In this document: positions 6,522 to 22,939 of the stretch, in pieces
Numbering within the stretch: position 1 is the stretch's first letter
How the letters are laid out: each line of letters starts with the position of its first letter
Assembly: GCA_001790095.1 (NCBI GenBank)
Contig: MGBH01000001.1
Location: 240,001 to 272,000, forward strand
Origin: Candidatus Saccharimonadota bacterium
GTDB lineage: Bacteria; Patescibacteriota; Microgenomatia; UBA1406; GWC2-37-13
Direction of reading: 5' to 3'
Length of the DNA stretch: 32,000 bases
Made by a program: the position numbers and the translations under genes
The notes under the pieces: model-generated
The model's input: the letters and a program-made list of their open reading frames with translations, nothing else
The model's database searches: none
Told to the model about the DNA's origin: nothing

Positions 6522-8591
6522 ATGAGACTCCCCTTTTTTTCATCACGTTCTGTTCCTCAAGAATTGTTTTTTGGTCTTTTTTTAAAGGAAAAAAAAGGTG
6601 TCGGATATATATTTAGTGGAAACAAAGATAAAATATCCTTGGTTGCAAAACACGAATTCAAATATTCAAACGGTTGGGATAATCTAACAGAGGATGTTGA
6701 TGATGTTTTATTTAAGCTGGAGGATGAAACAAAAACTCGGATTGAAAAAACAATTTTCTTCGTTTTCTCTCACTTAGTGGATGACGCAACAAAAGAAATA
6801 AAAAGACCTTATTTACAAAAGATAAAAGAGCTGACAAAGAACCTTGAGATCAAACCTATAGGGTATATCGAATGTTATGAGGCTGTTGTTTCCTTTTTGC
6901 AGCAAAGAGAAGGGACACCGCTAACCTCTATTCTTATTGAGCTTGACAGTACAAACGCAGGCGTTTTTATCTATAAAGGAGGTCATAAAATCAATAATTT
7001 CATCGTTGCACGGACTAATAGCATTGTTGATGATTTATCTTCAGTTTTTGATACCTTAGGTAAGAATACGTTATTGCCCAATAGAGTAATTCTTTATAAT
7101 TCTTCCAACTTGATCGAAGAATCGACAAAAATTATATCTCATAAGTGGAGTTCTGAATTGTTTGTACAACTTCCTCGTGTTGAGATATTAAAAGAAGAAG
7201 ATATGCTTACTGGTTTGATGTCTGTTTTTGAACAACAAATCTACTCAGATCAAAATATTGATAAGGGGAGTGTCGATCACGAAGAAGAAAAAGAAGTGTT
7301 AGGTTTTGTTATAGGAGCTGATGTTAAGAAAAAAAGAAATTTTGTTCACAAAGAAAGCTCTTCTTTGCTTAAACAGTCGCCCTATATACAAAGAATATTT
7401 GGATCAGTGATGGTATTTTTTAAAAAAATAGGAATGCCGCAAGTAAAGATTATGGGGGCATCAAAAAAAAAGTATGTGACAGCTTTTATTTGCATATTGT
7501 TTGTTGGAGCATTCTTCTTTCTCCTTGAATTTTTCTTACACAAGGCAACGGTGAAAGCTGTATTTCCCTCAAAAAAAATTGACAAAAAAGTAGAAATAAA
7601 TGGAGCCATTGATGAGCAGAAAGAAGGGTATCTAAACATCCAGATTGCTACTTCTTCAGTTGAGATGAAGGATATAAAGACAACTACGGGAAAAAGAGAC
7701 GTAGGTGAAAAAGCAAAGGGCGAGGTAATTCTTTATAATTTTGATGACAAGGAGAAAACATTTCAGAAAGGAACCACTATCCAAGTAGATACCTTACAGT
7801 TTACAACAGATGAGGATGCAAAAGTAGCCGCTTCAACTCTTGCAAACGATGCTTCTGCTAAACTACCTGGTAAATCTAAAGTAAAAGTAACAGCTGTTGA
7901 GATTGGGACAGAATCAAACCTCGACAAAGGAAAACGTTTTAAAATCACAGACCTATCACCATCAACATACTTTGCCTTAAATGAAACTGCCTTTTCCGGT
8001 GGAACAAGAAAATCTATTAAAACAGTCTCAAAAAAAGACTTAGATGAACTACAGGCTTCTTTGTTACAGAAGGCAAAAGACCAACAAAAGGAATCGATCT
8101 ACAAAGCCAAGGATAAACGAGTGACATTGATTGATTCAATGATGGATTTCCAACTGTCAAATATTAAATTTTCCAAAGAGTTAGGAGAAGAAGGAGAGAC
8201 TATTACCCTTAACGCTAAGGTGGTTGCTAAATATTACTATTTTGATAATGCTCTCATGAGTACCGTATTAAAAAAAGAGATGGAACAAGACATACCTGAG
8301 GGGTACGTTCTTAAAGAAAAGAATATTTCTTATAAAATTGATGATGTATCTCAGGGTAAAACAAATACAAGTTTGGAAGTCCATATTCAGGCAAAAGCAA
8401 CGAAAAACATTAACACTCGAGAGATTATTTCTCGATTTCGTTTTAAACAGGTCTCACAGGCAGAGAATGAACTTAAGAACATCTATGGTACAATATCAAA
8501 TCAAATAAGCATAGCGCCTCCCCTATTTATTTTAGGTGATTTTATGCCCCTTTTTGAAAGAAATATCGATTTACGAATTGAATCAAATTGA
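6522..8591 (+). CDS. Bitopic membrane protein of unknown function (cytoplasmic N-domain, one TM, large extracytoplasmic beta-rich C-domain)
   Basis: Long uninterrupted ORF with no signal peptide. A single TM (YVTAFICILFVGAFFFLLEFFL) lies at nt 7473-7538. The N-domain has a faint actin-fold/FtsA-PilM-like flavour (ILIELDSTNAGVFIYKGG). The C-domain (GEVILYNFDDKEKTFQKGT...) recalls proteins annotated as baseplate-J-like in CPR genomes. The family assignment is weak. Confidence 0.6.
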   Translation: MRLPFFSSRSVPQELFFGLFLKEKKGVGYIFSGNKDKISLVAKHEFKYSNGWDNLTEDVDDVLFKLEDETKTRIEKTIFFVFSHLVDDATKEIKRPYLQKIKELTKNLEIKPIGYIECYEAVVSFLQQREGTPLTSILIELDSTNAGVFIYKGGHKINNFIVARTNSIVDDLSSVFDTLGKNTLLPNRVILYNSSNLIEESTKIISHKWSSELFVQLPRVEILKEEDMLTGLMSVFEQQIYSDQNIDKGSVDHEEEKEVLGFVIGADVKKKRNFVHKESSSLLKQSPYIQRIFGSVMVFFKKIGMPQVKIMGASKKKYVTAFICILFVGAFFFLLEFFLHKATVKAVFPSKKIDKKVEINGAIDEQKEGYLNIQIATSSVEMKDIKTTTGKRDVGEKAKGEVILYNFDDKEKTFQKGTTIQVDTLQFTTDEDAKVAASTLANDASAKLPGKSKVKVTAVEIGTESNLDKGKRFKITDLSPSTYFALNETAFSGGTRKSIKTVSKKDLDELQASLLQKAKDQQKESIYKAKDKRVTLIDSMMDFQLSNIKFSKELGEEGETITLNAKVVAKYYYFDNALMSTVLKKEMEQDIPEGYVLKEKNISYKIDDVSQGKTNTSLEVHIQAKATKNINTREIISRFRFKQVSQAENELKNIYGTISNQISIAPPLFILGDFMPLFERNIDLRIESN

Positions 8592-11778: not shown

Positions 11779-12849
11779 TTATACGTCTAACAAAAAGCGT
11801 TTAAGCGATATATAATACTCTTTCAGGCTGTTTATGTCTACCCATTCGCAATCAGTGTGAAGACCATAACCAGTTGGACCAAACTCTACTCCATCACAAC
11901 CAACTCTATTAAAATGCCTTATATCTGAGGCTCCGTAGCCAGCGATGATGGATGCTGATTTATTAATTGATTTTTTTACTGCGTTTTGCAATTTTTTTAG
12001 ATAAACATTGTTTTTACTTGTAAACTGAGCTGGTTCTTTTACTTTGATGTCAAGTTGGACATAAGAAGGGAGAGTTTTTTTTAACAGACTAACGATTGTT
12101 TCCGTATCTTTGGGAATATAACGGATGTCAATCCCCACTGTACAATCATCTGCTACTTTATTGTATGTTTGGTTGGATGAATTTATCGTTGATAAATTTA
12201 GTGTTGTTTTCCAAATGGGTTTTTGAGGTTCTGGAAATTTTTTTGCAAGTTGATTAAGCGCTTGATTCATCATACGGATTGCATTTGACCCCTGCCACAG
12301 ATAGGCAGCGTGTGCCGTCTTTCCTTTGATGGAAAGATTTGCCCACAGCACTCCCTTTGCTTCATTTTTCACCTTGAGGTCGGTTCCTTCACCTGCAATT
12401 GCAAACTCTGCACGGACTCCCTCATCAGCTTGATATTTTGCACCATTGAAGCCGCCAATCTCTTCATCTGTCACCAGTTGAAGCGCAAGAGGATAATTGA
12501 CTTTTTGAGCAACTTCTTTAAATACGAGAAGTTCAACTGCAGCTGCAGCCTTCATGTCAAAGGCCCCTCTAGCATACAACCTCCCATCTTTTTCAACAGA
12601 AGCGTATTGTTCTTTATTACCCGGTACAACATCAAGATGAGCATCAAGGATGATTTTAAAGTTACGAAGTTTTTTGTTTTCTTTGTAAACCAAGATGCTA
12701 GGTATTCCATCCTTCTCAAATTCTTCAATATGAAAGCCTGAGAGCTCTCCTTTTGCGATGTCCAGAACCTCATGAAGAGCTTTATTATTTTCCTTGATAG
12801 ACGGGATTGAAATAAATTGTTTAGTTAGAGAAAGAATTTTGGTTAACAT
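11779..12849 (-). CDS. M20-family metallopeptidase/deacylase (ArgE/DapE/LysK-like)
   Basis: DAHLDVVPG, GAFDMKAAAA and VTDEEIGG motifs, with M20 length and layout. Sits 21 nt downstream of the HTH gene and may belong to the same transcript. Confidence 0.8.
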   Translation of the reverse strand: MLTKILSLTKQFISIPSIKENNKALHEVLDIAKGELSGFHIEEFEKDGIPSILVYKENKKLRNFKIILDAHLDVVPGNKEQYASVEKDGRLYARGAFDMKAAAAVELLVFKEVAQKVNYPLALQLVTDEEIGGFNGAKYQADEGVRAEFAIAGEGTDLKVKNEAKGVLWANLSIKGKTAHAAYLWQGSNAIRMMNQALNQLAKKFPEPQKPIWKTTLNLSTINSSNQTYNKVADDCTVGIDIRYIPKDTETIVSLLKKTLPSYVQLDIKVKEPAQFTSKNNVYLKKLQNAVKKSINKSASIIAGYGASDIRHFNRVGCDGVEFGPTGYGLHTDCEWVDINSLKEYYISLKRFLLDV

Positions 12850-12870
12850 AGGGATATTATAATGTATATA

Positions 12871-13341
12871 TTATTTTTTGAATTTGTAAATCAGTATTTG
12901 CGACCGTCTTAAACTTCTCTCTCCTTGATTACGCAACTGTCTAATATATTCTGTACTTGTTTTGAATGAAAGAAAAGAAGCGACCTGTTTAAGTGTTCTT
13001 CCATATGTTTCAGGATTATCAAGCGAATATGATACTCTAATAACTTCTTGCAACTTTGGTTTAATTAAACCAATTGCATTTTCTAATGATAGAACCAGAG
13101 AATAAAGTTCACTTGCATCATTTAATGAAATGGCAAGGGTCCTTCGATTAATAAGAGGTATTTCTATTTCATATTCAGCACTTGGGAAAAATGGCCTTTG
13201 AAAAAGAATTACAGCCAAAGTAAGTCCAAGATATCCTATATGTTGTTCAACAGTGGGTAGTATATCTTGTGGAATACTTTTTTCAGTAATTGATTCTAAC
13301 CGCCTGATAAGATTATTTTTTGCTTCTGGATGAGTAGCCAT
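12871..13341 (-). CDS. Small protein with C-terminal sigma-70 region-4-like helix-turn-helix
   Basis: The C-terminus LQEVIRVSYSLDNPETYGRTLKQVASFLSFKTSTEYIRQLRNQGERSLRR resembles a region 4.2 HTH. The start is 1 nt after the stop of the upstream GNAT gene (TAGTATG), which implies coupling. Confidence 0.5.
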   Translation of the reverse strand: MATHPEAKNNLIRRLESITEKSIPQDILPTVEQHIGYLGLTLAVILFQRPFFPSAEYEIEIPLINRRTLAISLNDASELYSLVLSLENAIGLIKPKLQEVIRVSYSLDNPETYGRTLKQVASFLSFKTSTEYIRQLRNQGERSLRRSQILIYKFKK

Positions 13342-13342
13342 A

Positions 13343-14449
13343 CTAATTATTCAATACATTTGCTCTTAGATTTGTAACAAACTCCTCAAGCTGTCTACGC
13401 ACAGTTTCATCAAGTCGTATATGATGAAGGCATTGATCATAGTCATTCATTGTTTTTCGAAAACCGACTTGCCATTCAGGTGCTTTTTTTTCACTTACCT
13501 GCCAGGGTCGAACCATTGCAGGTATAAGACTATCTTCTGACATCAATAGAACACGTTTACCATCATGAACGTTTTCATAACCAGTAACGATCTGTAGGCC
13601 AATTGCTTCAGATAATCTGAGGACATATTCCAAATCTTCTTTTGAGGTTAGTTCATTTGTCTCCAAAAAGCCTGATGCATCAGGTTTGATGATTGTCATC
13701 TTTATATTACCATGCGAAATAATGGTAACATCTTGTTCATCATATAACACCTGAAATCCGTTTTGTGCTTCGCTTAACATACCATATATTTTTTCTCTTA
13801 CCTTTTGTGCTGAAGGCAGTCTTGTGGTGGCGACTTCTCTGTTTTTTTCTTCTGGGTTATGTTGGGCTTTTTCCATATTTTCAATCAATTTTTCGGCTAG
13901 TAAGGGTGGCCATTTTCTTAGTCCTTCATATAAAGACTCAGAGGGTATTTCAAGACTGGTCATATGTACCATACTTTCACGTGCTGGACCAACGGGTTTA
14001 TCATCGCCATCTCTATGGTCAAATACTACGTGTTTTCCAGTTTCAATTGAAACGGCTTTTAAACCTGCTCCAAGGCTTGATCTTTGCATACCAATCTGAT
14101 CTGCCCGTGTATCAGTATAAGGATGTGCGTGACGTTTTTCAGCCTCTTGTGCTAAATGAATAGTCATATCTTTTGCCAGTCCATTTTTCCGATAGTCAGG
14201 ATCGACGATAACCCGTTTTATCTCAGCCATTAATCCATCAACTCCTAATACTGCGGTTCCGATAATCCTTTGCAGGTCAGGTTGAAGTAAAGCAATAATC
14301 CTTATTTCACCTTTTGCAATATTACCAGCCAATGATATAGGATCATAAACACTCTCGAATGGATATCCTTTAAAACCTCTTTGGGCGAGTGAAGCCAAAC
14401 CTGTTGCGTCTTTGGGTTGTGCGTTTTGTATTTTATACTCGATACTCAT
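13343..14449 (-). CDS. GNAT-family acyl-CoA N-acyltransferase domain fused to ~200-aa C-terminal domain of unknown family
   Basis: The N-terminal ~160 aa have GNAT layout with acetyl-CoA motif A (RVIVDPDYRKNGLAKDM = R-x-x-G-x-A). I recognise nothing in the C-terminal half. It could be a second, degenerate GNAT fold. Confidence 0.65.
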   Translation of the reverse strand: MSIEYKIQNAQPKDATGLASLAQRGFKGYPFESVYDPISLAGNIAKGEIRIIALLQPDLQRIIGTAVLGVDGLMAEIKRVIVDPDYRKNGLAKDMTIHLAQEAEKRHAHPYTDTRADQIGMQRSSLGAGLKAVSIETGKHVVFDHRDGDDKPVGPARESMVHMTSLEIPSESLYEGLRKWPPLLAEKLIENMEKAQHNPEEKNREVATTRLPSAQKVREKIYGMLSEAQNGFQVLYDEQDVTIISHGNIKMTIIKPDASGFLETNELTSKEDLEYVLRLSEAIGLQIVTGYENVHDGKRVLLMSEDSLIPAMVRPWQVSEKKAPEWQVGFRKTMNDYDQCLHHIRLDETVRRQLEEFVTNLRANVLNN

Positions 14450-14471
14450 AAGTTAAGAAATAATGTTTGTT

Positions 14472-14492
14472 TATAACTAAAAAGCCCGCCTT
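14472..14492. repeat. 21-nt exact direct repeat, copy 1 (TATAACTAAAAAGCCCGCCTT)
   Basis: Identical to 16555-16575. Both copies continue into the same GGCGGG stem with different loops. A related copy (ATAACTAAAAAACCCCGC) is at 16438-16455. Confidence 0.9.
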
Positions 14493-14501
14493 GCGGCGGG
14501 T
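14476..14501 (-). terminator. GC-rich hairpin + T-tract (intrinsic terminator-like) 27 nt upstream of the GNAT gene start
   Basis: Stem CCCGCC/GGCGGG (14485-14490 / 14495-14500), loop TTGC. On the minus strand it is followed by CTTTTTAG. Confidence 0.6.
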
Positions 14502-14524
14502 ATATTTTGATTTACTATTAATCT

Positions 14525-14596
14525 TTATGCATCAAAAACCCCGCCCAAGATCGGGCTCATAAAGTAGAAGAAGTAACTATTTCTTTGGGGTAACAT
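14525..14596 (-). CDS. Speculative 23-aa micro-ORF (MLPQRNSYFFYFMSPILGGVFDA); may instead be a non-coding leader
   Basis: The ATG lies 6 nt downstream of a TGnTATAAT extended -10, which is leaderless geometry. The 3' half overlaps a weak hairpin. No Shine-Dalgarno sequence. Confidence 0.2.
   Translation of the reverse strand: MLPQRNSYFFYFMSPILGGVFDA
14534..14557 (-). terminator. Weak hairpin + T-tract
   Basis: The minus strand reads GCCC-GATCTT-GGGC followed by GGGGTTTTTGA. The stem is only 4 bp. Confidence 0.3.
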
Positions 14597-14602
14597 GAAG
14601 AT

Positions 14603-14630
14603 ATTATACATTATCAATACCATTTTTCAA
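14603..14630 (-). promoter_or_regulatory. Sigma-70-type promoter with extended -10, internal to the cassette
   Basis: The minus strand reads TTGAAA (14630-14625), 16 nt, TGtTATAAT (-10 at 14608-14603). It lies in the 218-nt gap between the ligase and GNAT genes. Confidence 0.55.
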
Positions 14631-14667
14631 TCACTATTTATTTTTTTTAGTAAACATAATCTTATTT

Positions 14668-16434
14668 TTAGGCAAATAAAGCTTTAATATTTCCATTGAG
14701 ACCTGCTAAGAATGTATGGTATGCACTGCCTAAATTATCCATACAGTCTTTGATTGCATCTTCTTCAGACATTCCTCTTTTTTCAATCAAATCCCTTGCT
14801 CTTTGTTTTAACCAATGCGATAAAGTACCGATACCGCTTTTATAGAATCCATCGATTGATACAACACCGTCAGGTTCTCTATAATTCTGAAAAGATTGTT
14901 GATTTGGTACCTGAGCGCTTTTCATTAATTCATGCATAATACCTTGAGGTAATCCTTGATATTCGACTTCCTGTCCGAAGTCATGTATAGGTTCATTGAC
15001 AAAAAGAAGCAGCTGATTAAATAATTCTCCTGCGGTTGCCTGTTGATCATCTGCTGTCTGCAACACTGCGTCAACGCCTCTCTTTGCAACCTCAATACTA
15101 TTTATATGAGCTAATCGTAATATATTTTCTGTTATTTGAGGAGGAAATAACTGCGGGTACTCATGGGACAGTTGTTCCATTTTCCCAGCTTTAGCATATA
15201 GTTGTAATTTCCACATTAAAACTCTTGTAAATTCTTGTATCGCAGCAAGCTTGAGTACATTTCCTCCAAAAGTATCCATATTTGAAATTTCAAGAGTACC
15301 ATTTGGTCCAATATCTACTCGAATACGATCAGTATGGTGACCGCCGGCCCTTGCGGGAGATGGTATGTTTTCAGGTGAATGAGGATCATTATTTTTTAAC
15401 CCAGCCTCAGCAAGAGTAAAAAATTCACCTGCGTTTTCGGGTAAGGGCTTAACATATGACCCTCCTGAGGGTGATCCGCGCCACCTTGCTGGATATCTTA
15501 TAGACATCCAATCATCGTTATTTAACATATCATAGCTTTCTGTATCACTCACTCTTCTTGGACTTGACTCATCTTGGATATACATATCATGAAGATTTGG
15601 CTGAGTTGATCCATGAGCAAAAGGTCCAGCTAAAGATAGAGCATATAATAGCGGGGCTATTTGTTGGTACATATTCATAGCTTTTAATCCCGATTCAAGA
15701 TCTAACATCTCAACATGCACTTGAAACGAAGAGCCGATAAAATGTCTTACGTTTTCCCATCCCATAAACTCCATTGCAATTCTTTTCACATATGGGTCTT
15801 GGCTTGTATCTTTTGGTTCAAGCGGTCTGTGAGGAAAAGCGGAAATTGGAGTTAATCTCCATCCTTCTTTTTCCGCAGCTTTTGCCAAAGTTTTAAGTGA
15901 CCTTGCCATTGATAATGCAGCCTGGAAGGTGTGGGGGGTATGATGAAAGTTCATCTCTATACAGCTTGTCGCTAATTCGGCTGAGTAACCAATTTGTTTT
16001 TTGTCGGGATCAAGTTCTTCAAATATTGGATCTTCGGCTTCAAAATGTGCTCCATTATTTGCTTCTTCCAATGTATTTGGCACAGAGCTGTTAGGTGCCA
16101 TTACGGGTGCTTCTGTTTGATTGCCCGGATCCCACACATACATTTCAAATTCTCCACCCGTTTCAACCCCTTGTAGAGAAGCAGATGGTTTTGGTTCAGT
16201 AAAAACAGGTCGAATGTCTGATCCATGTAATTTCGTATCATTCTCCCTTGCTCGCCAAAAGGGACTTCTTATATACCCTGTGGGTAGACCATCTTTCCAA
16301 ATAAATCCTCCCTCAGTCTTAGGATCAAAATTGATATATTCTCCGTTGTCATCTAACAATCTACGAAATGCATCTTCACGAATCCCTTTGCTCGTCGTCA
16401 TAGCTTTATGATTTATCTTTTTTGCTTCTTTCAT
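14668..16434 (-). CDS. Enlarged GCS2/YbdK-type carboxylate-amine ligase (glutamate-cysteine-ligase family 2 fold)
   Basis: An ordered motif series matches my memory of E. coli YbdK: GVETGGEFEMYVWDP (GIELEMQVVNP), AELATSCIEM (ESMLELAT), SSFQVHVEM (GQHVHVG), ALSLAGPFAHG (ALSAASPYMQG), GTLEISNMDT (GTVEVRVMDT). At 588 aa against ~370 aa, it has a ~90-aa N-terminal extension and internal insertions. Confidence 0.65.
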   Translation of the reverse strand: MKEAKKINHKAMTTSKGIREDAFRRLLDDNGEYINFDPKTEGGFIWKDGLPTGYIRSPFWRARENDTKLHGSDIRPVFTEPKPSASLQGVETGGEFEMYVWDPGNQTEAPVMAPNSSVPNTLEEANNGAHFEAEDPIFEELDPDKKQIGYSAELATSCIEMNFHHTPHTFQAALSMARSLKTLAKAAEKEGWRLTPISAFPHRPLEPKDTSQDPYVKRIAMEFMGWENVRHFIGSSFQVHVEMLDLESGLKAMNMYQQIAPLLYALSLAGPFAHGSTQPNLHDMYIQDESSPRRVSDTESYDMLNNDDWMSIRYPARWRGSPSGGSYVKPLPENAGEFFTLAEAGLKNNDPHSPENIPSPARAGGHHTDRIRVDIGPNGTLEISNMDTFGGNVLKLAAIQEFTRVLMWKLQLYAKAGKMEQLSHEYPQLFPPQITENILRLAHINSIEVAKRGVDAVLQTADDQQATAGELFNQLLLFVNEPIHDFGQEVEYQGLPQGIMHELMKSAQVPNQQSFQNYREPDGVVSIDGFYKSGIGTLSHWLKQRARDLIEKRGMSEEDAIKDCMDNLGSAYHTFLAGLNGNIKALFA

Positions 16435-16442
16435 ATAATAAC

Positions 16443-16467
16443 TAAAAAACCCCGCATTTGGCGGGGT
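16443..16467 (-). terminator. GC-rich hairpin + T6 (intrinsic terminator-like) ending 8 nt before the ligase ATG
   Basis: Stem CCCCGC/GCGGGG (16450-16455 / 16461-16466), loop ATTTG. The minus strand continues TTTTTTAGTTATTAT then ATG at 16434. Confidence 0.6.
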
Positions 16468-16489
16468 TGTAATTATTAATTAATAAATA

Positions 16490-16555
16490 CTAACCCGCTA
16501 TATAGAGGGTAAGGATAATAATAACAAGAACTAAATTTAATACAGATTCTGTCAT
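16490..16555 (-). CDS. Speculative 21-aa hydrophobic micro-ORF (MTESVLNLVLVIIILTLYIAG)
   Basis: ATG to TAG ORF bracketed by two terminator-like hairpins. It encodes a single TM-helix-length hydrophobic core. No Shine-Dalgarno sequence. Confidence 0.3.
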   Translation of the reverse strand: MTESVLNLVLVIIILTLYIAG

Positions 16556-16575
16556 ATAACTAAAAAGCCCGCCTT
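16555..16575. repeat. 21-nt exact direct repeat, copy 2 (TATAACTAAAAAGCCCGCCTT)
   Basis: Identical to 14472-14492. Read directly from the sequence. Confidence 0.9.
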
Positions 16576-16587
16576 TTGAGGCGGGTT
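16561..16587 (-). terminator. GC-rich hairpin + T-tract (intrinsic terminator-like)
   Basis: Stem CCCGCC/GGCGGG (16568-16573 / 16580-16585), loop TTTTGA. The minus strand continues CTTTTTAGTTAT then the micro-ORF ATG. Confidence 0.6.
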
Positions 16588-16609
16588 TGTGTATCTTTCT
16601 ATACAACAA

Positions 16610-16672
16610 TTACTCCGCCCTTTTGGGGGTAATAAGTTGAATAAAAAGGACTGATAATGATTTGTGTACCAT
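16610..16672 (-). CDS. Speculative 20-aa micro-ORF (MVHKSLSVLFIQLITPKRAE), C-terminal Glu; may instead be a non-coding leader
   Basis: The ATG is 11 nt downstream of the -10 element of the promoter at 16684-16712, so it is nearly leaderless. It is followed by the hairpin at 16561-16587. Confidence 0.2.
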   Translation of the reverse strand: MVHKSLSVLFIQLITPKRAE

Positions 16673-16683
16673 GTTAGTCTACT

Positions 16684-16712
16684 AATATACCAAATGCTTT
16701 CTCAAAATGCAA
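16684..16712 (-). promoter_or_regulatory. Sigma-70-type promoter with extended -10, starting 7 nt after the serS stop
   Basis: The minus strand reads TTGCAT (16712-16707), 17 nt, TGgTATATT (-10 at 16689-16684). Confidence 0.5.
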
Positions 16713-16719
16713 GGGGTTT

Positions 16720-17979
16720 TTACTTTTTCTTGATGACATCAAATCCGGTTAAGGATTTAAGTACATCGGGGATAGCTACAGTGCCATCTTCTTGTTGATA
16801 ATTCTCAAGAAGGGCGATTAAGATCCTTGGTGAAGCGACCGCTGTATTATTAAAAGAAAAACAGTATTCTTTTGTTCCATCCTTTTTCCGGTATTTGATA
16901 TTGAGTCTTCTTGTTTGGAAATCACCCATGATCGAATTGCTCATGGTTTCACCATAACCTTGTCGGGATGGCATCCAGGTTTCGGTGTCATATTTTTTGT
17001 GCTGAGGCTCACCCATGTCTCCGGTACACATGAGAAGTACTTGATAAGGAAGATTCAGATCCTGCAGGATCTCTTCTGCATTTTTTTGAAGTTCATCATG
17101 AATTTTGCGCGCCTCATTAATATTACTTTTTCCTATGATTACCTGCTCGATTTTCCAAAATTCATGTAGTCGATACATGCCTTTGGTATCTTTTCCATAT
17201 GATCCAGCTTCTTTTCTAAAGCAGGGGGAGAAAGCGACAAATTTTTTAGGCAAATCTTCTTCTTTGAGAATTTCGTTTGCATAATAAGATGTGACAGGCA
17301 CTTCTGCAGTGCCGGAAAGATATGCATCTTCATCGTTAAGCTTATATACCTCTTCCTGTCCCCAAGGGAATTGGCCAGCGCCAAAAAGGGTAAATCCCTT
17401 AACTATAGCTGGTGCAATAAGAGGAGTGTAGCCTTTTTTAATGAGTTTCTGTAAAACATAAAAAAGAAGACTTAAATGTAAGACCGCTCCTTCATTTTTC
17501 AGAAAGTATCCTCTGAAACCTGAAACTTTTACCCCTCTTTCAAAGTCGATAATGTTTAGGTCTTTTCCCAACTCTATATGAGACTTTATAGGAAATTTAA
17601 ACTGCTTCGGCGTTCCCCACTGGTGTTGGAGTACATTGCCTGTTGCATCTTTACCAATTGGGACTTCATCAAAGGGAATATTGGGAATGAAACTTAAAAG
17701 CGTCTGCAATTGCTTCTCTGTTGCATTAAGCGTTTCTTCTATTGATTTCAGATCTTCTTTGATTTGCCTACCTCTTGTCTTTGTTTCCTCAGTAAATGTC
17801 TTTTTTGAAATCAAATTTCTTTCTTCTCGAAGTTTTTGTGATTGTGCTGCTAGTTTTTTTCTTTCTTCATCAAGGGAAAGTATCTTTTCCACATTATCAA
17901 TGTATTTTTCTCTATTTTTATTACGAAGAGCGTCAATTACTTTTTGTTTATTGAGTCGTATAAAATCTATGGATAGCAT
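16720..17979 (-). CDS. serS: Seryl-tRNA synthetase
   Basis: N-terminal coiled-coil arm, class II motif 2 region FRKEAGSYGKDTKGMYRLHEF, and motif 3 region NNTAVASPRILIALLENYQ. Confidence 0.95.
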   Translation of the reverse strand: MLSIDFIRLNKQKVIDALRNKNREKYIDNVEKILSLDEERKKLAAQSQKLREERNLISKKTFTEETKTRGRQIKEDLKSIEETLNATEKQLQTLLSFIPNIPFDEVPIGKDATGNVLQHQWGTPKQFKFPIKSHIELGKDLNIIDFERGVKVSGFRGYFLKNEGAVLHLSLLFYVLQKLIKKGYTPLIAPAIVKGFTLFGAGQFPWGQEEVYKLNDEDAYLSGTAEVPVTSYYANEILKEEDLPKKFVAFSPCFRKEAGSYGKDTKGMYRLHEFWKIEQVIIGKSNINEARKIHDELQKNAEEILQDLNLPYQVLLMCTGDMGEPQHKKYDTETWMPSRQGYGETMSNSIMGDFQTRRLNIKYRKKDGTKEYCFSFNNTAVASPRILIALLENYQQEDGTVAIPDVLKSLTGFDVIKKK

Positions 17980-18608: not shown

Positions 18609-20924
18609 TTATACAGCGATTGCTGCTAAAGTTACTTCACCACCACAGTATTTTGTGATTATATCTATTGTTTCCTTTAATGATCGTTCAACCATCTCTC
18701 TTGTGATGTCGTATATACCATCGATATTAATGAGGATGTTTTTTGTTTGTTCAGTTACCTTGGTTCGTACAGCATCTCGATAATTAAAATCTATATTATA
18801 ACCACCCACCTTGTCAAAATAAGCAAGTTCGGTTGTTTTATAAAGAGTTGGTTCTTTGTCGCCCAAAAGATGTATATGCTCTTCTGGGTTTGGAAAACGC
18901 AGTATGGTAGGAAAGGATACCGCATCAAGATCAAAAGCTCCAACTGAGACGCGGTGACTCATCACCACAAGGTTATATGCATCCACACACGTATTGACAC
19001 AATAGAGCCCTTTTTTCATAGCAACTCTTCGGAGGAGCGCCTCAGGTGATGGGCGGCGAGAGTGCCAGTCAATCTTCATCTGTCTATACAAGGTACGATA
19101 TGACAGAACTTCAGGATAAGAACTTATGACCTCATTTGTGAGGGTTTCTTGTGTCTTAAGGAACTCTTGTTGTTTGGTGTTAAGATCGGGATTTTCTTTT
19201 TGGATTGATACCCCTTTAATAATCGCAACTCCAACACTAACTGTAGGGAACTGTTTTTTTACTAAGGGATGAATAGAAAAAATCTTTTCATCATAAAGGG
19301 TTGGGAACTTGAATGCGGCTTTGGGGGATTGGTCTTTTTGCTTGATTGAATCTGTAAGTTTCTTAGCAGTCGTATTTACTCCTAGTTCTAAAATAAGATC
19401 TGCTATTTTGGGACCGAACTGTTTTCCTGTTAGAATTTGATATAAAAGTCCAAATACATCTTTTGGTTTAACAAGAGCTGTTTTCATGGTTGCAAAGACT
19501 ACGTTTTGAATAGATTCCCGGTCTGAGGATGGAAGATTTTCCAGTTGACGGGTGAGAGAAATGATGAATTTTTTTTGCTGATCGTTCAACTTAACAAGGG
19601 GGGGTGTGGTTTCTTTGATGGTGCTCGTTCCTTCAGCATATTTCTTAAGAAATATATTTGCATAGGTAATGCGTTCATTGAGAAGAGCGAGTTCGGTTGG
19701 GGAAAGCGACCTTCCTAGTTGTTTCTCAAACATAGATTTGGGATCCCCCTTGCTTTTGAGTATGTTTGCTATTGTCCGAAAACGGGGAAGAAAATACCTT
19801 TTTTTGACAAGCGGCTTGACTTCTGACAGTTCAATAATTCGGGCAAAATCAGACAGTACTTCACCTTGTTTGTTTTGAGGGATTACGCCTTCATATTTAT
19901 CAAAATATGCATTCATACAGCGATCATAATCATCAAAGAGATTAGGTATGGTATCGCCCGCAGGATCAAAGTCAAGCACCGTTCCAATAGGAGTTCTTAC
20001 GATTAAGAATCGTAGTACTTCAGGTGGTAATATTTTTGTCATTCCAATAGCCGTTGCACCAACCCCCTTGGATGAAGACATTTTTCTACCGCCAATTATA
20101 AACCATTCGTAGGGAATAGGATAGGGAGGGTTATATTGTAACACCTCTTTACATATTGCAGAACCAAAATCATATGAACCACCCTTTGACATGTGATCTT
20201 TTCCCGCTCCTTCTATGCTTACACCCACTACTTTCCATGTTGCCGGCCAGTCCAGTCTCCATGGTAGTTTTCCATTGTTGCCGACAGGTTTAATTTTACC
20301 TTCATATCCACAGCCCGTAGTCCATTTGACTGCATCTATAGCACATCGGTAATGCACATATACTCCATCCCATTTGTGTGCTTGGGTAGTACTAAGCTTT
20401 CCGCATTTTTCGCAAACAGGCGTATAGGGGATCCAGTTTGCTTTTTTTATGGCTTTTGATACACGAAAATATATCCCCCTTATTTTATCTGCACTATCCA
20501 AAATAGTTCGTACTACATCGTCCATTTTTCCTGAACCATAGAGCTCTGAAGACCAGATGATTTTGGGATGACAGTTTATCGATTCAAACACATGTATAAA
20601 TTCTTTTCCATAGGTTTGAGCAAAGCTATCGTATCCTTTTTCAGGTGGGGGGATTTTATAAAGAGGCATTCCCATATATTTGCTCCATTTTGTTGCATCA
20701 AGATACGAAGGCATGCCGTCCATAGGGTCATGATCGTTTATGACATATGAAAAAGTTGCATTGACTCCGGCAGCAACAAGTCCTTTATACATGAGGTCAT
20801 GTATCACTACTCCACGAAGTGCACCTACATGGACACGTCCCGATGGTGTCTTCATATCATCCACCCACTCAAGAGGTATTTGCCTATCTTTTATTATTTT
20901 TGCTTGGCGGTCGACCCAAATCAT
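18609..20924 (-). CDS. lysK: Class I lysyl-tRNA synthetase fused to a C-terminal B3/B4 (PheRS-beta-type) domain
   Basis: HIGH-equivalent TPSGRVHVGALRG and KMSKS-equivalent KMSSSKG. The C-terminal ~225 aa (nt 18609-19292) carry RRPSPEALLRRVAMKKGLYCVNTCVDAYNLVVMSHRVSVGAFDLD, typical of COG3382/B3_4 proteins. Confidence 0.85.
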   Translation of the reverse strand: MIWVDRQAKIIKDRQIPLEWVDDMKTPSGRVHVGALRGVVIHDLMYKGLVAAGVNATFSYVINDHDPMDGMPSYLDATKWSKYMGMPLYKIPPPEKGYDSFAQTYGKEFIHVFESINCHPKIIWSSELYGSGKMDDVVRTILDSADKIRGIYFRVSKAIKKANWIPYTPVCEKCGKLSTTQAHKWDGVYVHYRCAIDAVKWTTGCGYEGKIKPVGNNGKLPWRLDWPATWKVVGVSIEGAGKDHMSKGGSYDFGSAICKEVLQYNPPYPIPYEWFIIGGRKMSSSKGVGATAIGMTKILPPEVLRFLIVRTPIGTVLDFDPAGDTIPNLFDDYDRCMNAYFDKYEGVIPQNKQGEVLSDFARIIELSEVKPLVKKRYFLPRFRTIANILKSKGDPKSMFEKQLGRSLSPTELALLNERITYANIFLKKYAEGTSTIKETTPPLVKLNDQQKKFIISLTRQLENLPSSDRESIQNVVFATMKTALVKPKDVFGLLYQILTGKQFGPKIADLILELGVNTTAKKLTDSIKQKDQSPKAAFKFPTLYDEKIFSIHPLVKKQFPTVSVGVAIIKGVSIQKENPDLNTKQQEFLKTQETLTNEVISSYPEVLSYRTLYRQMKIDWHSRRPSPEALLRRVAMKKGLYCVNTCVDAYNLVVMSHRVSVGAFDLDAVSFPTILRFPNPEEHIHLLGDKEPTLYKTTELAYFDKVGGYNIDFNYRDAVRTKVTEQTKNILINIDGIYDITREMVERSLKETIDIITKYCGGEVTLAAIAV

Positions 20925-21889: not shown

Positions 21890-22939
21890 TTAGTTTGCTG
21901 GAGCGCATCCTGCAGCAGACGTTGTAGTACCTGAACCTTCTGCGGCTTCATCAGTCTTTGATAAAGACACAGCTATATCAGCCTTTGATAGTTCACTGGC
22001 ACAAAAACCAGGTTTTTCTTTACTTCCACAACATACCAATTGTTTGATGGCATCAGGAGTGCGTCCGCCAAAGTCAAACTCAGACACAGTTTGTTTTTCA
22101 TTTGAGATAAGAGTTGGTGATCCACTAACTCCATATTTATTTGCTAAAGTAAAATCAGCTTGAGCATATTTTAAACCTCGATTCGCATCGCCTGTACATG
22201 CGGTTAACTCAGATGTATCAACTCCTGTTGTAATAAGACACTCATCTGTTTTGCCCTCCATCATGTAACAGGATACATATGGCCAGTATTTCTCTTTCTG
22301 TTCTTCACGAATACATATTTGCTTTAGATTTTCTTGTGCTTCTTTATCACCGTGCATAGATGTAATCTTTCCGTTTTCAACTGATCCAATATATTTAATA
22401 TTCAAATAAGACGATAAATCTGGCGCCTCGTTCAGGGCCTTTTTAAAGACTCTTTGCATTTGAAGTCCAAAAGGACAATCAGCTACGACATACGCGGTAA
22501 GACTAGCTTTGTCCGTTTTTGGAACATCATCACATGTAAGCTTTTTAGTCTCTTTTGCCGGTTGCTGACTTTTTGACAGTTCGTCAACCTTTATACCCGA
22601 TGTAAAAAGGATTTTTCCATCACGGGAAATGTATGAAGTATATTTTTGTCCAGCTACTTCTAACTGAAATTCAACTAGTCCGCTTGCCTCTTTTACGTTT
22701 AAGATAGAGACTTTGGTAGAGGGATTGTTGATTACTTTTTTTACAGCTTCAGGGATAATTTGCGTTTTCATTTTGTTGATATCAGGACCCGATCCTTTGA
22801 CAAAACGTAAAACCAAAAAGACTGCAATAAGCCCTGCAATAAATGCGAGCGGTTTCCAATTATTATTTAACTGAACATTTCCTGGTAGATTTTTTTCTAC
22901 TTCAGGACTTTGGTTATGAGAAGTGTGAATTTTTTTCAT
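21890..22939 (-). CDS. Membrane-anchored thioredoxin-fold (DsbA-like) protein with CPFG motif and Cys-rich C-terminus
   Basis: N-terminal TM (LAFIAGLIAVFLVLRF). VVADCPFGLQ sits where DsbA-type proteins carry CxxC. A cis-Pro-like loop reads VSGSPTLISN. The tail contains LVCCGSKEKPGFCASE and AAGCAPAN. Confidence 0.5.
   Translation of the reverse strand: MKKIHTSHNQSPEVEKNLPGNVQLNNNWKPLAFIAGLIAVFLVLRFVKGSGPDINKMKTQIIPEAVKKVINNPSTKVSILNVKEASGLVEFQLEVAGQKYTSYISRDGKILFTSGIKVDELSKSQQPAKETKKLTCDDVPKTDKASLTAYVVADCPFGLQMQRVFKKALNEAPDLSSYLNIKYIGSVENGKITSMHGDKEAQENLKQICIREEQKEKYWPYVSCYMMEGKTDECLITTGVDTSELTACTGDANRGLKYAQADFTLANKYGVSGSPTLISNEKQTVSEFDFGGRTPDAIKQLVCCGSKEKPGFCASELSKADIAVSLSKTDEAAEGSGTTTSAAGCAPAN

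Follow-up and report, generated by a model that had tools for sequence, protein, structure and literature searches.

Classical leader-peptide attenuators regulate either the synthesis of the amino acid that their codons specify or the matching tRNA synthetase (PMC3082878; PMC1262725). Ligases that adopt the glutamine synthetase (GS) fold are known beside amide hydrolases: the 'New CAL' families adjoin a GATase-like thiol peptidase or an Aig2 cyclotransferase (Iyer, Burroughs and Aravind 2008, PMC2588565). An ATP-dependent amide ligase has a cognate amidohydrolase in PafA/Dop, in the Puu pathway (PuuA/PuuD) and in LysW/LysX/LysK, and an operon for D- to L-amino-acid conversion joins a GNAT acyltransferase and an M20 deacylase to an N-succinylamino-acid racemase (NSAR). 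Here we describe a locus in a 32,000-nucleotide (nt) stretch of contig MGBH01000001.1 ('the window' hereafter means this whole stretch), from the candidate phyla radiation (CPR), that encodes an enlarged ligase (LigA), a two-domain GNAT, a small protein with a helix-turn-helix (HTH)-like end and an M20 enzyme. For comparison, 35 related loci (L001–L035) were fetched and the window proteins were mapped onto them. The initial annotation had taken the ligase, GNAT and HTH genes for one cassette that appeared to have its own regulator. We propose instead that the region consists of two adjacent transcription units, each with its own attenuator, whose enzymes would raise the supply of hydrophobic amino acids; in this explanation as a whole our confidence is slightly less than even. 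GS-fold ligase with amidohydrolase, GNAT with M20, and leader-peptide attenuation are all known kinds; what is new is their combination, together with the protein families and the phylum, and a literature search found no described system of this composition, as the initial annotation had supposed.

As in the 'New CAL' families, a GCS2-like ligase stands here with an amide hydrolase and with no Pup-like open reading frame (ORF) noticed, and in the distant LigA loci L003 and L014/L015 the hydrolase is a class I glutamine amidotransferase (GATase)/peptidase-C26-type protein instead of M20. The usual partners in our loci, however, are an M20 enzyme and either a GNAT or a second ligase, which can replace each other; the proteins are bigger, and leader-peptide regulation has not been described for those families. 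With the D- to L-amino-acid operon the locus shares GNAT and M20 together and an acylate-then-deacylate logic; here, by contrast, GNAT has an extra conserved C-terminal domain and is replaceable by an ATP-dependent ligase, and an enolase-superfamily NSAR was found in none of the listed loci. PafA/Dop, Puu and LysW/LysX/LysK likewise pair ligase with amidohydrolase, whereas our locus has neither a conserved carrier or tag protein (no conserved carrier ORF ends in Glu, and micro-ORF endings vary) nor oxidation or reduction enzymes between ligase and hydrolase; LigA has the GS fold, PuuA being GS-type and LysX an ATP-grasp enzyme. The leaders resemble pheL/pheA, pheM/pheST, ilvL and leuL in having a short ORF with a codon run, 1:2, 2:3 and 3:4 pairings and an intrinsic terminator (PMC3082878; PMC1262725). 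In one locus (L035) pheST itself lies downstream. Unlike the targets of classical attenuators, among which transport genes are a further class, the genes regulated here are not known biosynthetic, synthetase or transport genes.

The features of the two units in the window are the following.

16676–16705, minus strand: promoter-like site of unit A, TTGAGA-18-TAGACT, a consensus match only
16610–16672, minus strand: leader micro-ORF 1 of unit A, MVHKSLSVLFIQLITPKRAE, with I, L, V or F at six of eight core residues
16560–16585, minus strand: terminator 1 of unit A, CCCGCCTCAAAAGGCGGG and a T-run
16490–16555, minus strand: leader micro-ORF 2 of unit A, MTESVLNLVLVIIILTLYIAG, with I, L, V or F at eight of eight core residues
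16441–16468, minus strand: terminator 2 of unit A, AACCCCGCCAAATGCGGGGTT and a T-run, ending a few nt ahead of the LigA ATG
14668–16434, minus strand: LigA ORF, 588 amino acids, predicted enlarged carboxylate-amine ligase of the YbdK/GCS2 fold
14603–14630, minus strand: promoter-like site of unit B, TTGAAA-16-TATAAT, matching at 11 of 12 positions, its −10 box ending 6 nt before the leader ATG
14525–14596, minus strand: Phe-type leader micro-ORF of unit B, MLPQRNSYFFYFMSPILGGVFDA, with F or Y at five of six consecutive codons
14543–14556, minus strand: 1:2 hairpin GCCCGATCTTGGGC inside that leader, its 3′ half and the following G's being the putative antiterminator strand
14478–14500, minus strand: terminator of unit B, CCCGCCGCAAGGCGGG and CTTTTTAGTTAT, the consensus hairpin of 16 loci
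13343–14449, minus strand: GNAT ORF, 368 amino acids, predicted two-domain acyltransferase
12871–13341, minus strand: HTH-like ORF, 156 amino acids, an ORFan with a weakly sigma-70 region-4-like C-terminus
11779–12849, minus strand: M20 ORF, 356 amino acids, ArgE/DapE-type deacylase and constant last gene of unit B
16720–17979, minus strand: serS, adjoining the LigA leader region

Translation placed the four co-directional ORFs where the initial annotation had them, with the motifs GVETGGEFEM, AELATSCIEM, FQVHVE, ALSLAGPFAHG, GTLEISNMDT and RKNGLA, the TAGTATG junction between the GNAT and HTH ORFs and the 21-nt spacer ahead of M20. The three micro-ORFs that it had mentioned in passing also exist, and turned out to be the most informative feature. 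Each gap before LigA and before GNAT runs in the order promoter-like site, micro-ORF, hairpin, T-run. A motif of hairpin plus TTTTTAGTTAT occurs three times in the 32 kb, always in the two gaps of the cassette, against 0.24 occurrences expected, and terminator-like sites number 15 between 11500 and 17200 (4.2 ± 2.2 expected), with no excess elsewhere in the window. The 3′ end of micro-ORF 1 (GGGCGGAG) can pair with the 5′ arm of terminator 1 with a free energy (ΔG) of −12.4, compared with −5.6 ± 2.1 for shuffled sequences. In unit B the 5′ arm of the terminator, CCCGCCGCAAGGCGGG-CTTTTT, is complementary to the G-rich 3′ side of the leader hairpin GCCCGATCTTGGGC, and the antiterminator pairing has a ΔG of −13.2 against −6.7 ± 2.1 for shuffles.

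Both designs recur in the related loci, several of which come from the same clades, so that the counts of leader units are not all independent. Phe-type leaders number 16, the design of unit B being present in 15 loci besides the window, and stand ahead of GNAT or of two proteins that can occupy its place (LigB and X395, described below). Thirteen were scored and have four to six F or Y in the best six-codon window; three further ones were read by eye, with a Phe run in L034 and L035 and just two F in L033. Examples are:

L027, before LigB: MSVHHLSFFFFFSPSRRGYVM
L028, before LigB: MSEHQITFFFFFTRLGGVI
L031, before GNAT: MISQRKSYFFFFFTRESGGVYDK
L019, before LigB: ...NFGFFFFKPTRSGEVV
L029, before X395: ...KLAFFFFFTPLLRGS
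L034, before GNAT, no LigA nearby: MKQHVMFFFFYPTYGGELF

Most Phe-leader ORFs begin 6–8 nt past a TAnAAT box, and because so many start this close to the −10 box their transcripts are probably leaderless. In every lineage examined LigA is preceded by one to three Leu/Ile/Val/Phe-rich micro-ORFs with a terminator after each. Leaders homologous to micro-ORF 1 lie upstream of LigA in L007, L008, L009, L022, L029 and others, and tandem second or third leaders occur also in L013, L027 and L028. Leaders of this type, ahead of LigA or its positional substitutes, number 20, including those of proteins at the position of LigA in L032 and upstream of LigA in L031, and their eight-residue cores are 83% I, L, V or F. 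Examples, each before LigA, are:

L029: MSNKSLSMIFVLLINPLKAEA
L009: MQSKVYSNIFVLLFIAR
L013: MNSFGFSLIITQLVLLTEAGA
L030: MNKFLLISLIIINLFRG

Leaders and terminators matched each other within units. For the Phe type (13 units) antiterminator pairing with the cognate terminator averaged −14.0 kcal/mol and with non-cognate terminators −11.8 kcal/mol (permutation p 0.00015), and in 11 of the 13 units no more than two of 200 shuffles did as well. For the Leu/Ile/Val/Phe type (20 units) the values were −11.6 and −9.5 kcal/mol, none of 20,000 permutations being as low, and most units beat nearly all of their shuffles. Minimum free energy folds gave the 1:2 plus 3:4 state in some loci and the 2:3 state in others. 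RNAalifold of the 16 Phe-type units returned the terminator as a consensus hairpin with compensatory changes in three of its six pairs; the G-rich 3′ ends of the leaders covary with the terminator arm. Beyond the codon run, the encoded peptides show little conservation. The Rfam families Phe_leader (RF01859), Leu_leader and Thr_leader stayed below gathering (35 and 25.5 bits against 55), and when long leaders from 10 sources were scanned with Rfam for riboswitches or T-boxes only tRNA reached gathering. A resemblance of the IFVL-type leaders to the stalling motifs of Erm leaders was considered and set aside. As far as nucleotide sequence allows them to be judged, both leader classes have every feature of a classical leader-peptide attenuator, and our confidence in a regulatory architecture of two attenuator-controlled units is high. 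A literature search found no paper on leader-peptide attenuators in CPR/Patescibacteria, and as far as that search goes these are the first to be described in this radiation.

Unit A comprises a promoter-like site, two tandem Leu/Ile/Val/Phe leaders each with a terminator, and then LigA, predicted to be ATP-dependent; unit B comprises a promoter-like site, a leader with a Phe/Tyr run, a 1:2 hairpin, a terminator, and then the putative N-acylating enzyme and M20. Should the tRNAs that read the regulatory codons be short of charge, a ribosome would stall on the run and mask region 1, region 2 would then pair with the terminator 5′ arm, and transcription would read through. The layout of the leaders, its conservation and the covariation are observed, whereas we infer that read-through is a response to scarce charged tRNA, unit A answering a shortage of Leu, Ile, Val or Phe and unit B a shortage of Phe. 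We read the locus as two units of this kind because classical attenuator logic and the genes found nearby fit together. In L035 (5858–11005) a promoter-like site, a Phe leader (MKAIQKVYSAFFFTS), GNAT, M20, pheS and pheT follow one another on one strand with no terminator-like site between them; ilvE-like class IV aminotransferases adjoin the cassette in L005, L022 and L029; and an M20 dipeptidase lies ahead of LigA in L016, L019, L020 and L021. In L029 (3021–6833) a Trp/Phe/Tyr-rich leader (MKNQTLWFYFNYFTPLTRARA) and a terminator precede an AlaDh/PNT-like gene, a PaaK-like aryl-acid ligase (84–112 bits with NCBIfam, below cut-off) and an M20 of a third type. Just upstream of that stretch, as also in L034, is an acylphosphatase gene.

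LigA scored 22.9 bits against the Pfam GCS2 profile (PF04107; cut-off 21), with residues 152–276 on profile positions 40–166 of 291, and 12–35 bits against the NCBIfam YbdK/GshA models (TIGR02050, NF010039/41/43, TIGR02048), whose cut-offs are 176–409. A word-indexed search of 5.8 billion protein clusters gave 40 relatives, nearly all of 550–600 amino acids; where a source is named it is Woesebacteria, Roizmanbacteria or the Microgenomates group, and the cluster names of second-tier relatives were uninformative. An exhaustive search of 1.84 billion representatives with the family profile found 172 proteins at E ≤ 1e-3 and essentially no canonical YbdK, which agrees with the earlier view that the ligase is not an ordinary YbdK or GshA orthologue. 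Invariant in 24 homologues are G93, E95, E97, E153, E160, H240, E242, R313, R317, R370, R372 and E382, a set expected of a GS-fold ligase in which G93-E95-E97 form the GhExE motif.

The AlphaFold model of LigA (predicted local distance difference test, pLDDT, 92.7) consists of a YbdK-like core with terminal additions, and both the N-terminal extension of 90 residues, already recognized in the initial annotation, and the C-terminal third are conserved in the alignment. Its best solved match with Foldseek was YbdK (1R8G/1TT4; E about 4e-11 to 5e-11, template modelling (TM) score 0.75 on target), followed by glutamate-cysteine ligases and then by Dop/PafA and glutamine synthetases, PafA/Dop giving E values of about 1e-5 to 1e-3 and TM scores on target of 0.37–0.50. 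A PDB sequence search with the LigA and LigB profiles gave nothing significant, and LigA was placed by fold search only. LigA shares with the YbdK/GCS2 ligases 1R8G and 1TT4 the GS-type fold, the metal/ATP motif GhExE and a set of conserved Glu, His and Arg residues. Unlike them it is about 220 amino acids longer, with the N-terminal extension (GGF...YIRSPFWR) and a C-terminal helical region of about 190 amino acids, it matches 125 of the 291 Pfam positions and reaches about one-tenth of the NCBIfam cut-offs, and its family is very rare, attenuator-controlled and, where named, from Microgenomates-group CPR. Because the invariant GS-fold residues and the confident YbdK-like fold agree, LigA is predicted to be a YbdK-type carboxylate-amine ligase that is enlarged, very divergent and seemingly active, rather than an ordinary orthologue.

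Six loci with LigA homologues 34–66% identical to that of the window (L007, L008, L011, L012, L014 and L015) come from metagenome-assembled genome records labelled 'uncultured Gammaproteobacteria', a label that looks like a placeholder; L007 also carries relatives of the serS and Ham1/rdgB-type genes of the window. In L014 and L015 (1.3–1.6-Mb chromosomes; L014 6904–11144) LigA is fused to a C-terminal region of about 500 amino acids and is preceded by the GATase/peptidase-C26-like gene; the C-terminal half of the L014 fusion had no family or profile match, and no obvious leader or terminator was seen at LigA in either locus. Genes for aminoacyl-tRNA synthetases (Ser, Cys, Thr) adjoin or lie near LigA in separate lineages (L022 276–1766; L003 4848–6557; L005 11216–12715; window 16720–17979), which could be chance in small, gene-dense genomes.

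Across the loci the genes around LigA are exchanged while M20 stays. M20 lies downstream of LigA on the same strand wherever downstream sequence suffices, except in L003, L014/L015 and L031; in L031 GNAT follows LigA and no M20 is found in the remaining sequence. The gene between them is GNAT in the window, L001 and L030, LigB (560 amino acids) in L009, L018, L019, L020, L022, L023, L027 and L028, and a 395-amino-acid protein (X395) in L029, and L005 and L013 have no gene there. At least three genes can be exchanged at this position; counted by lineage, LigB takes the place of GNAT in seven and X395 in one, and two have no GNAT. On one side of the cassette in the window are greA, class I lysS, a Ham1/rdgB-type gene and serS, and PBP1a and sortase genes flank the other. 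L027 and L028 are syntenic with the window from lysS (there of class II lysS/aspS type), the Ham1/rdgB-type gene and serS to PBP1a and sortase, with greA also in L028, and in both LigB takes the exact place of GNAT plus the HTH ORF. L033, L034 and L035 have GNAT followed by M20 with no LigA nearby, as does L032, where a toxin-antitoxin pair separates the two. Because these genes occur independently (GNAT and M20 without the ligase in L032–L035, GNAT swapped or absent in others), ligase, GNAT and HTH do not form a conserved unit. A function in peptidoglycan, considered from the adjacency of PBP1a and sortase, was set aside, as that adjacency is limited to the clade of the window itself.

LigB had no Pfam, NCBIfam or PDB sequence match. 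Its profile is co-linear with that of LigA, in a weak match (E 4.8e-4 over 416 columns, probability 32%) that takes in the N-terminal motif, GxExE and the Arg-rich segment, and on this weak profile match LigB would be a very distant LigA paralogue and a GCS2-like ligase. X613 (613 amino acids, L031) is weakly LigB-like by profile (E 1.6e-4), and X395, X638, X429/X140 and X483 had no family or profile match. X613 and a 483-amino-acid protein stand behind Leu/Ile/Val-type leaders in L031 (1196–4545), and in L032 (3136–4851) a pair of 429 and 140 amino acids stands in the place of LigA behind such a leader; judged by eye, the end of the 140-amino-acid part may be that of an ATP-grasp enzyme.

The GNAT ORF scored 28.7 bits with Pfam Acetyltransf_1 (PF00583; cut-off 20.7) over residues 60–120, motif A being RKNGLA, and fell well short of the NCBIfam cut-offs for AblB (31.5 of 205.1 bits), MshD (12.3 of 163.1) and RimI (15.9 of 86.4). 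By these scores it is a GNAT but not RimI, AblB or MshD. In its model (pLDDT 95.3) the N-terminal domain resembles RimI (5ISV; TM score about 0.77 on target) and amino-acid N-acetyltransferases, and the C-terminal domain is a conserved alpha/beta fold with GNAT-like strand order, in which no internal repeat signal was detected; it may or may not be a second GNAT-fold domain of the kind present in tandem-GNAT proteins such as 2WPW, 4MY3 and VipF. The family (n = 39) is conserved over its full length, and every named source is from the Microgenomates group (Woesebacteria, Roizmanbacteria).

The M20 protein matched Pfam Peptidase_M20 (89.9 bits) and M20_dimer (57.9 bits), reached 170.6 bits of the 217.6 required by NCBIfam TIGR01910, and scored far below cut-off with all DapE, ArgE and LysK equivalogs; its best solved relative is an uncharacterised M20, 2RB7. 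Orthologues at 46–67% identity follow GNAT, LigB or LigA in 17 loci (about 12 distinct contigs) and form one orthologous group, more distant M20s (27–33%) taking the same position in L030 and L035. The dedicated hydrolase that the initial annotation had thought possible is thus a constant partner of these genes. The sequence TATAATATCCCTATG, with a −10 box 6 nt ahead of the ATG, occurs at the M20 start of the window (12847–12873, minus strand) and at the Phe-leader start of L031 (about 6850–6868), and given this site M20 may possibly have a separate promoter in the window.

The codons of the leaders are legible and point to a set of enzymes (LigA, LigB, X613 of L031, the two-domain GNAT and the specific M20), giving a testable handle on their substrates, which could be hydrophobic amino acids as such or in N-acyl, gamma-glutamyl or D-form. 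A role in hydrophobic L-amino-acid supply suggests itself because of these attenuator codons. CPR/Patescibacteria are thought to depend on a host for amino acids and to be without these biosynthetic pathways, and the organism of the window probably does not synthesize hydrophobic amino acids. In the scheme that we consider, ligase or GNAT would cap the amino group of a hydrophobic amino acid or close precursor with an acyl group (gamma-glutamyl, aminoacyl or acetyl), candidate substrates being a D-isomer and an amino acid that entered the cell by diffusion, and M20 would remove the cap to give the free L-amino acid. GNAT, LigB and X395 would make the same kind of bond and so be interchangeable while M20 stays constant. 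That the chemistry is of this cap-and-release type is possible, though distinctly less than an even bet. We are a little more doubtful again of the wider proposal, that Microgenomates-group CPR have a new attenuator-controlled supply route for Phe, Leu, Ile and Val by way of GS-fold ligases or the two-domain GNAT together with M20. Such a route could work by energy-driven N-acyl trapping of membrane-permeant amino acids or by converting D-isomers or other precursors independently of a racemase; the exchangeable acylating enzymes would then couple one and the same step to alternative energy sources, ATP or acyl-CoA. Were it true, the finding would be considerably more important.

Several points weigh against this supply route. 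Sequence and fold do not reveal substrate specificity, and a ligase induced by shortage of its own substrate amino acid would be counter-intuitive. Acylation followed by deacylation would be futile unless something happened between the two; because the cassette conserves neither a racemase nor a transporter nor any other enzyme for the middle, the D-to-L and the trapping routes are both missing a step or without precedent. Hydrophobic-codon attenuators could also be general sensors of starvation or translation stress rather than pathway-specific ones, and leader-like ORFs of Streptomyces ilvB did not behave as classical attenuators (PMC1262725). A gamma-glutamyl-cycle reading was set aside, as neither a gamma-glutamyltransferase nor a cyclotransferase gene is present.

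Detoxification would account for some of the same facts: the attenuators would sense charging of tRNA-Phe, -Leu, -Ile or -Val impaired by amino-acid analogues or synthetase inhibitors, GNAT or ligase would N-acylate the toxin, and M20 would process or recycle the products. MccE/RimL, PAT, MddA and Ttr inactivate toxins by N-acylation. By structure the GNAT N-terminal domain is closest to RimI and to acetyltransferases of amino-acid analogues (the tabtoxin resistance protein, phosphinothricin acetyltransferase, YncA and ArsN), although these Foldseek neighbours are generic GNATs at 11–20% identity. An interchangeable acylating gene is frequent in resistance modules, the locus has taken up mobile insertions, and GNAT and M20 adjoin pheST in L035; nevertheless, M20 is the most conserved part, although a hydrolase reversing the modification would not be expected of a detoxification system, and in many lineages the cassette has a stable housekeeping context. 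We consider this explanation unlikely.

Equally unlikely, in our estimate, is a starvation-induced small amide metabolite (a di- or tripeptide, an N-acetylated gamma-glutamyl compound, a Trojan-horse antibiotic or a signal), with M20 serving maturation or self-protection. The 'N-acylated gamma-glutamyl-type metabolite' of the initial annotation survives in this form: the presence of several ligases with an acyltransferase speaks for it, and the codon-specific attenuators and the lack of a conserved exporter speak against it. Two to three ATP-dependent ligases and an acyltransferase share one locus, for pairs of GS-fold ligase and amidohydrolase a role in making novel metabolites or in modifying peptides has been proposed (PMC2588565), and LigA is paired with the GATase/C26-type enzyme in L003 and L014. 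However, attenuators with Phe runs or Leu/Ile/Val/Phe codons classically govern amino-acid supply or synthetases, not secondary metabolism (PMC1262725; PMC3082878), neither an exporter nor an immunity gene is conserved, and free exchange of GNAT for a ligase would alter the product.

Tagging of a protein, or of the micro-ORF peptides in the manner of ribosomally synthesized and post-translationally modified peptides, with LigA and LigB acting like PafA and Dop, for example in recycling during starvation, appears quite improbable. PafA and Dop share the fold class and are among the structural matches of LigA, but YbdK is by far the better match on the TM scores given above. The distant co-linear paralogy of LigA and LigB recalls that of PafA and Dop, the large conserved extra domains of LigA could bind a macromolecule, and some leaders end in ...AE or ...GG; against this, neither the window nor the listed loci showed a Pup-like or proteasome gene, though no systematic search for them was made, and micro-ORF sequences track RNA pairing and are poorly conserved as peptides beyond the codon run. 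The micro-ORF peptides, which the initial annotation had suggested co-folding with the ligase, are better read as leader peptides of attenuators than as ligase substrates.

The original model of ligase, GNAT and an HTH regulator controlling the cassette retains very little probability. In its favour are the tight TAGTATG coupling, the 21-nt spacer and the weak region-4-like match; of the Pfam families that the initial annotation had expected, GCS2, Acetyltransf_1 and Peptidase_M20 scored above cut-off, whereas Sigma70_r4 (PF04545) gave the HTH ORF 16.4 bits against 24.1, and the RpoD C-terminal model 15 against 354. On the other side, the HTH ORF is unique to its species: a search of 5.8 billion protein clusters returned only the ORF itself, and none of the 35 related loci has a relative. 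Its G+C content at third codon positions is atypical (0.17, against 0.26–0.32 in its neighbours), and GNAT and LigA occur independently of each other. The stretch from LigA through GNAT to M20 is an insertion hot spot, with an IS200-type transposase between LigA and GNAT in L001 (9929–10609), a HEPN/MNT toxin-antitoxin pair at the position of the HTH ORF in L032 (8211–8941) and the orphan HTH ORF in the window (12871–13341). Because it has no homologue and an atypical composition, and other insertions occur at or near its position elsewhere, the HTH ORF looks like a lineage-specific insertion, neither a conserved component nor a regulator of the cassette. An origin as a remnant of LigB, LigA or GNAT was rejected, profile comparison showing them unrelated. 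Gene-neighbourhood inference calls for caution here, the tightly coupled HTH gene being an orphan insertion and the true regulators apparently lying in 'empty' intergenic regions.

That the signals are ordinary terminators or a repeat element, with hydrophobic micro-ORFs arising by chance where TTT, ATT and TTA codons are common in AT-rich intergenic DNA and with the Rfam leader families below threshold, is scarcely credible when codon run, hairpin and terminator keep the same gene position in 36 units, down to LigA identities of 33–40%, when covariation is significant, and when the hairpin motif is confined to the cassette in the window.

Elsewhere in the window, neither of two ORFs (6522–8591, plus strand, 689 amino acids; 21890–22939, minus strand, 349 amino acids) gave a Pfam match at E ≤ 1e-5. 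In the class I lysyl-tRNA synthetase (tRNA-synt_1f; 18609–20924, minus strand) an unusual fusion adds at the C-terminus a B3/4 domain, the type that forms the editing module of the PheRS beta subunit.

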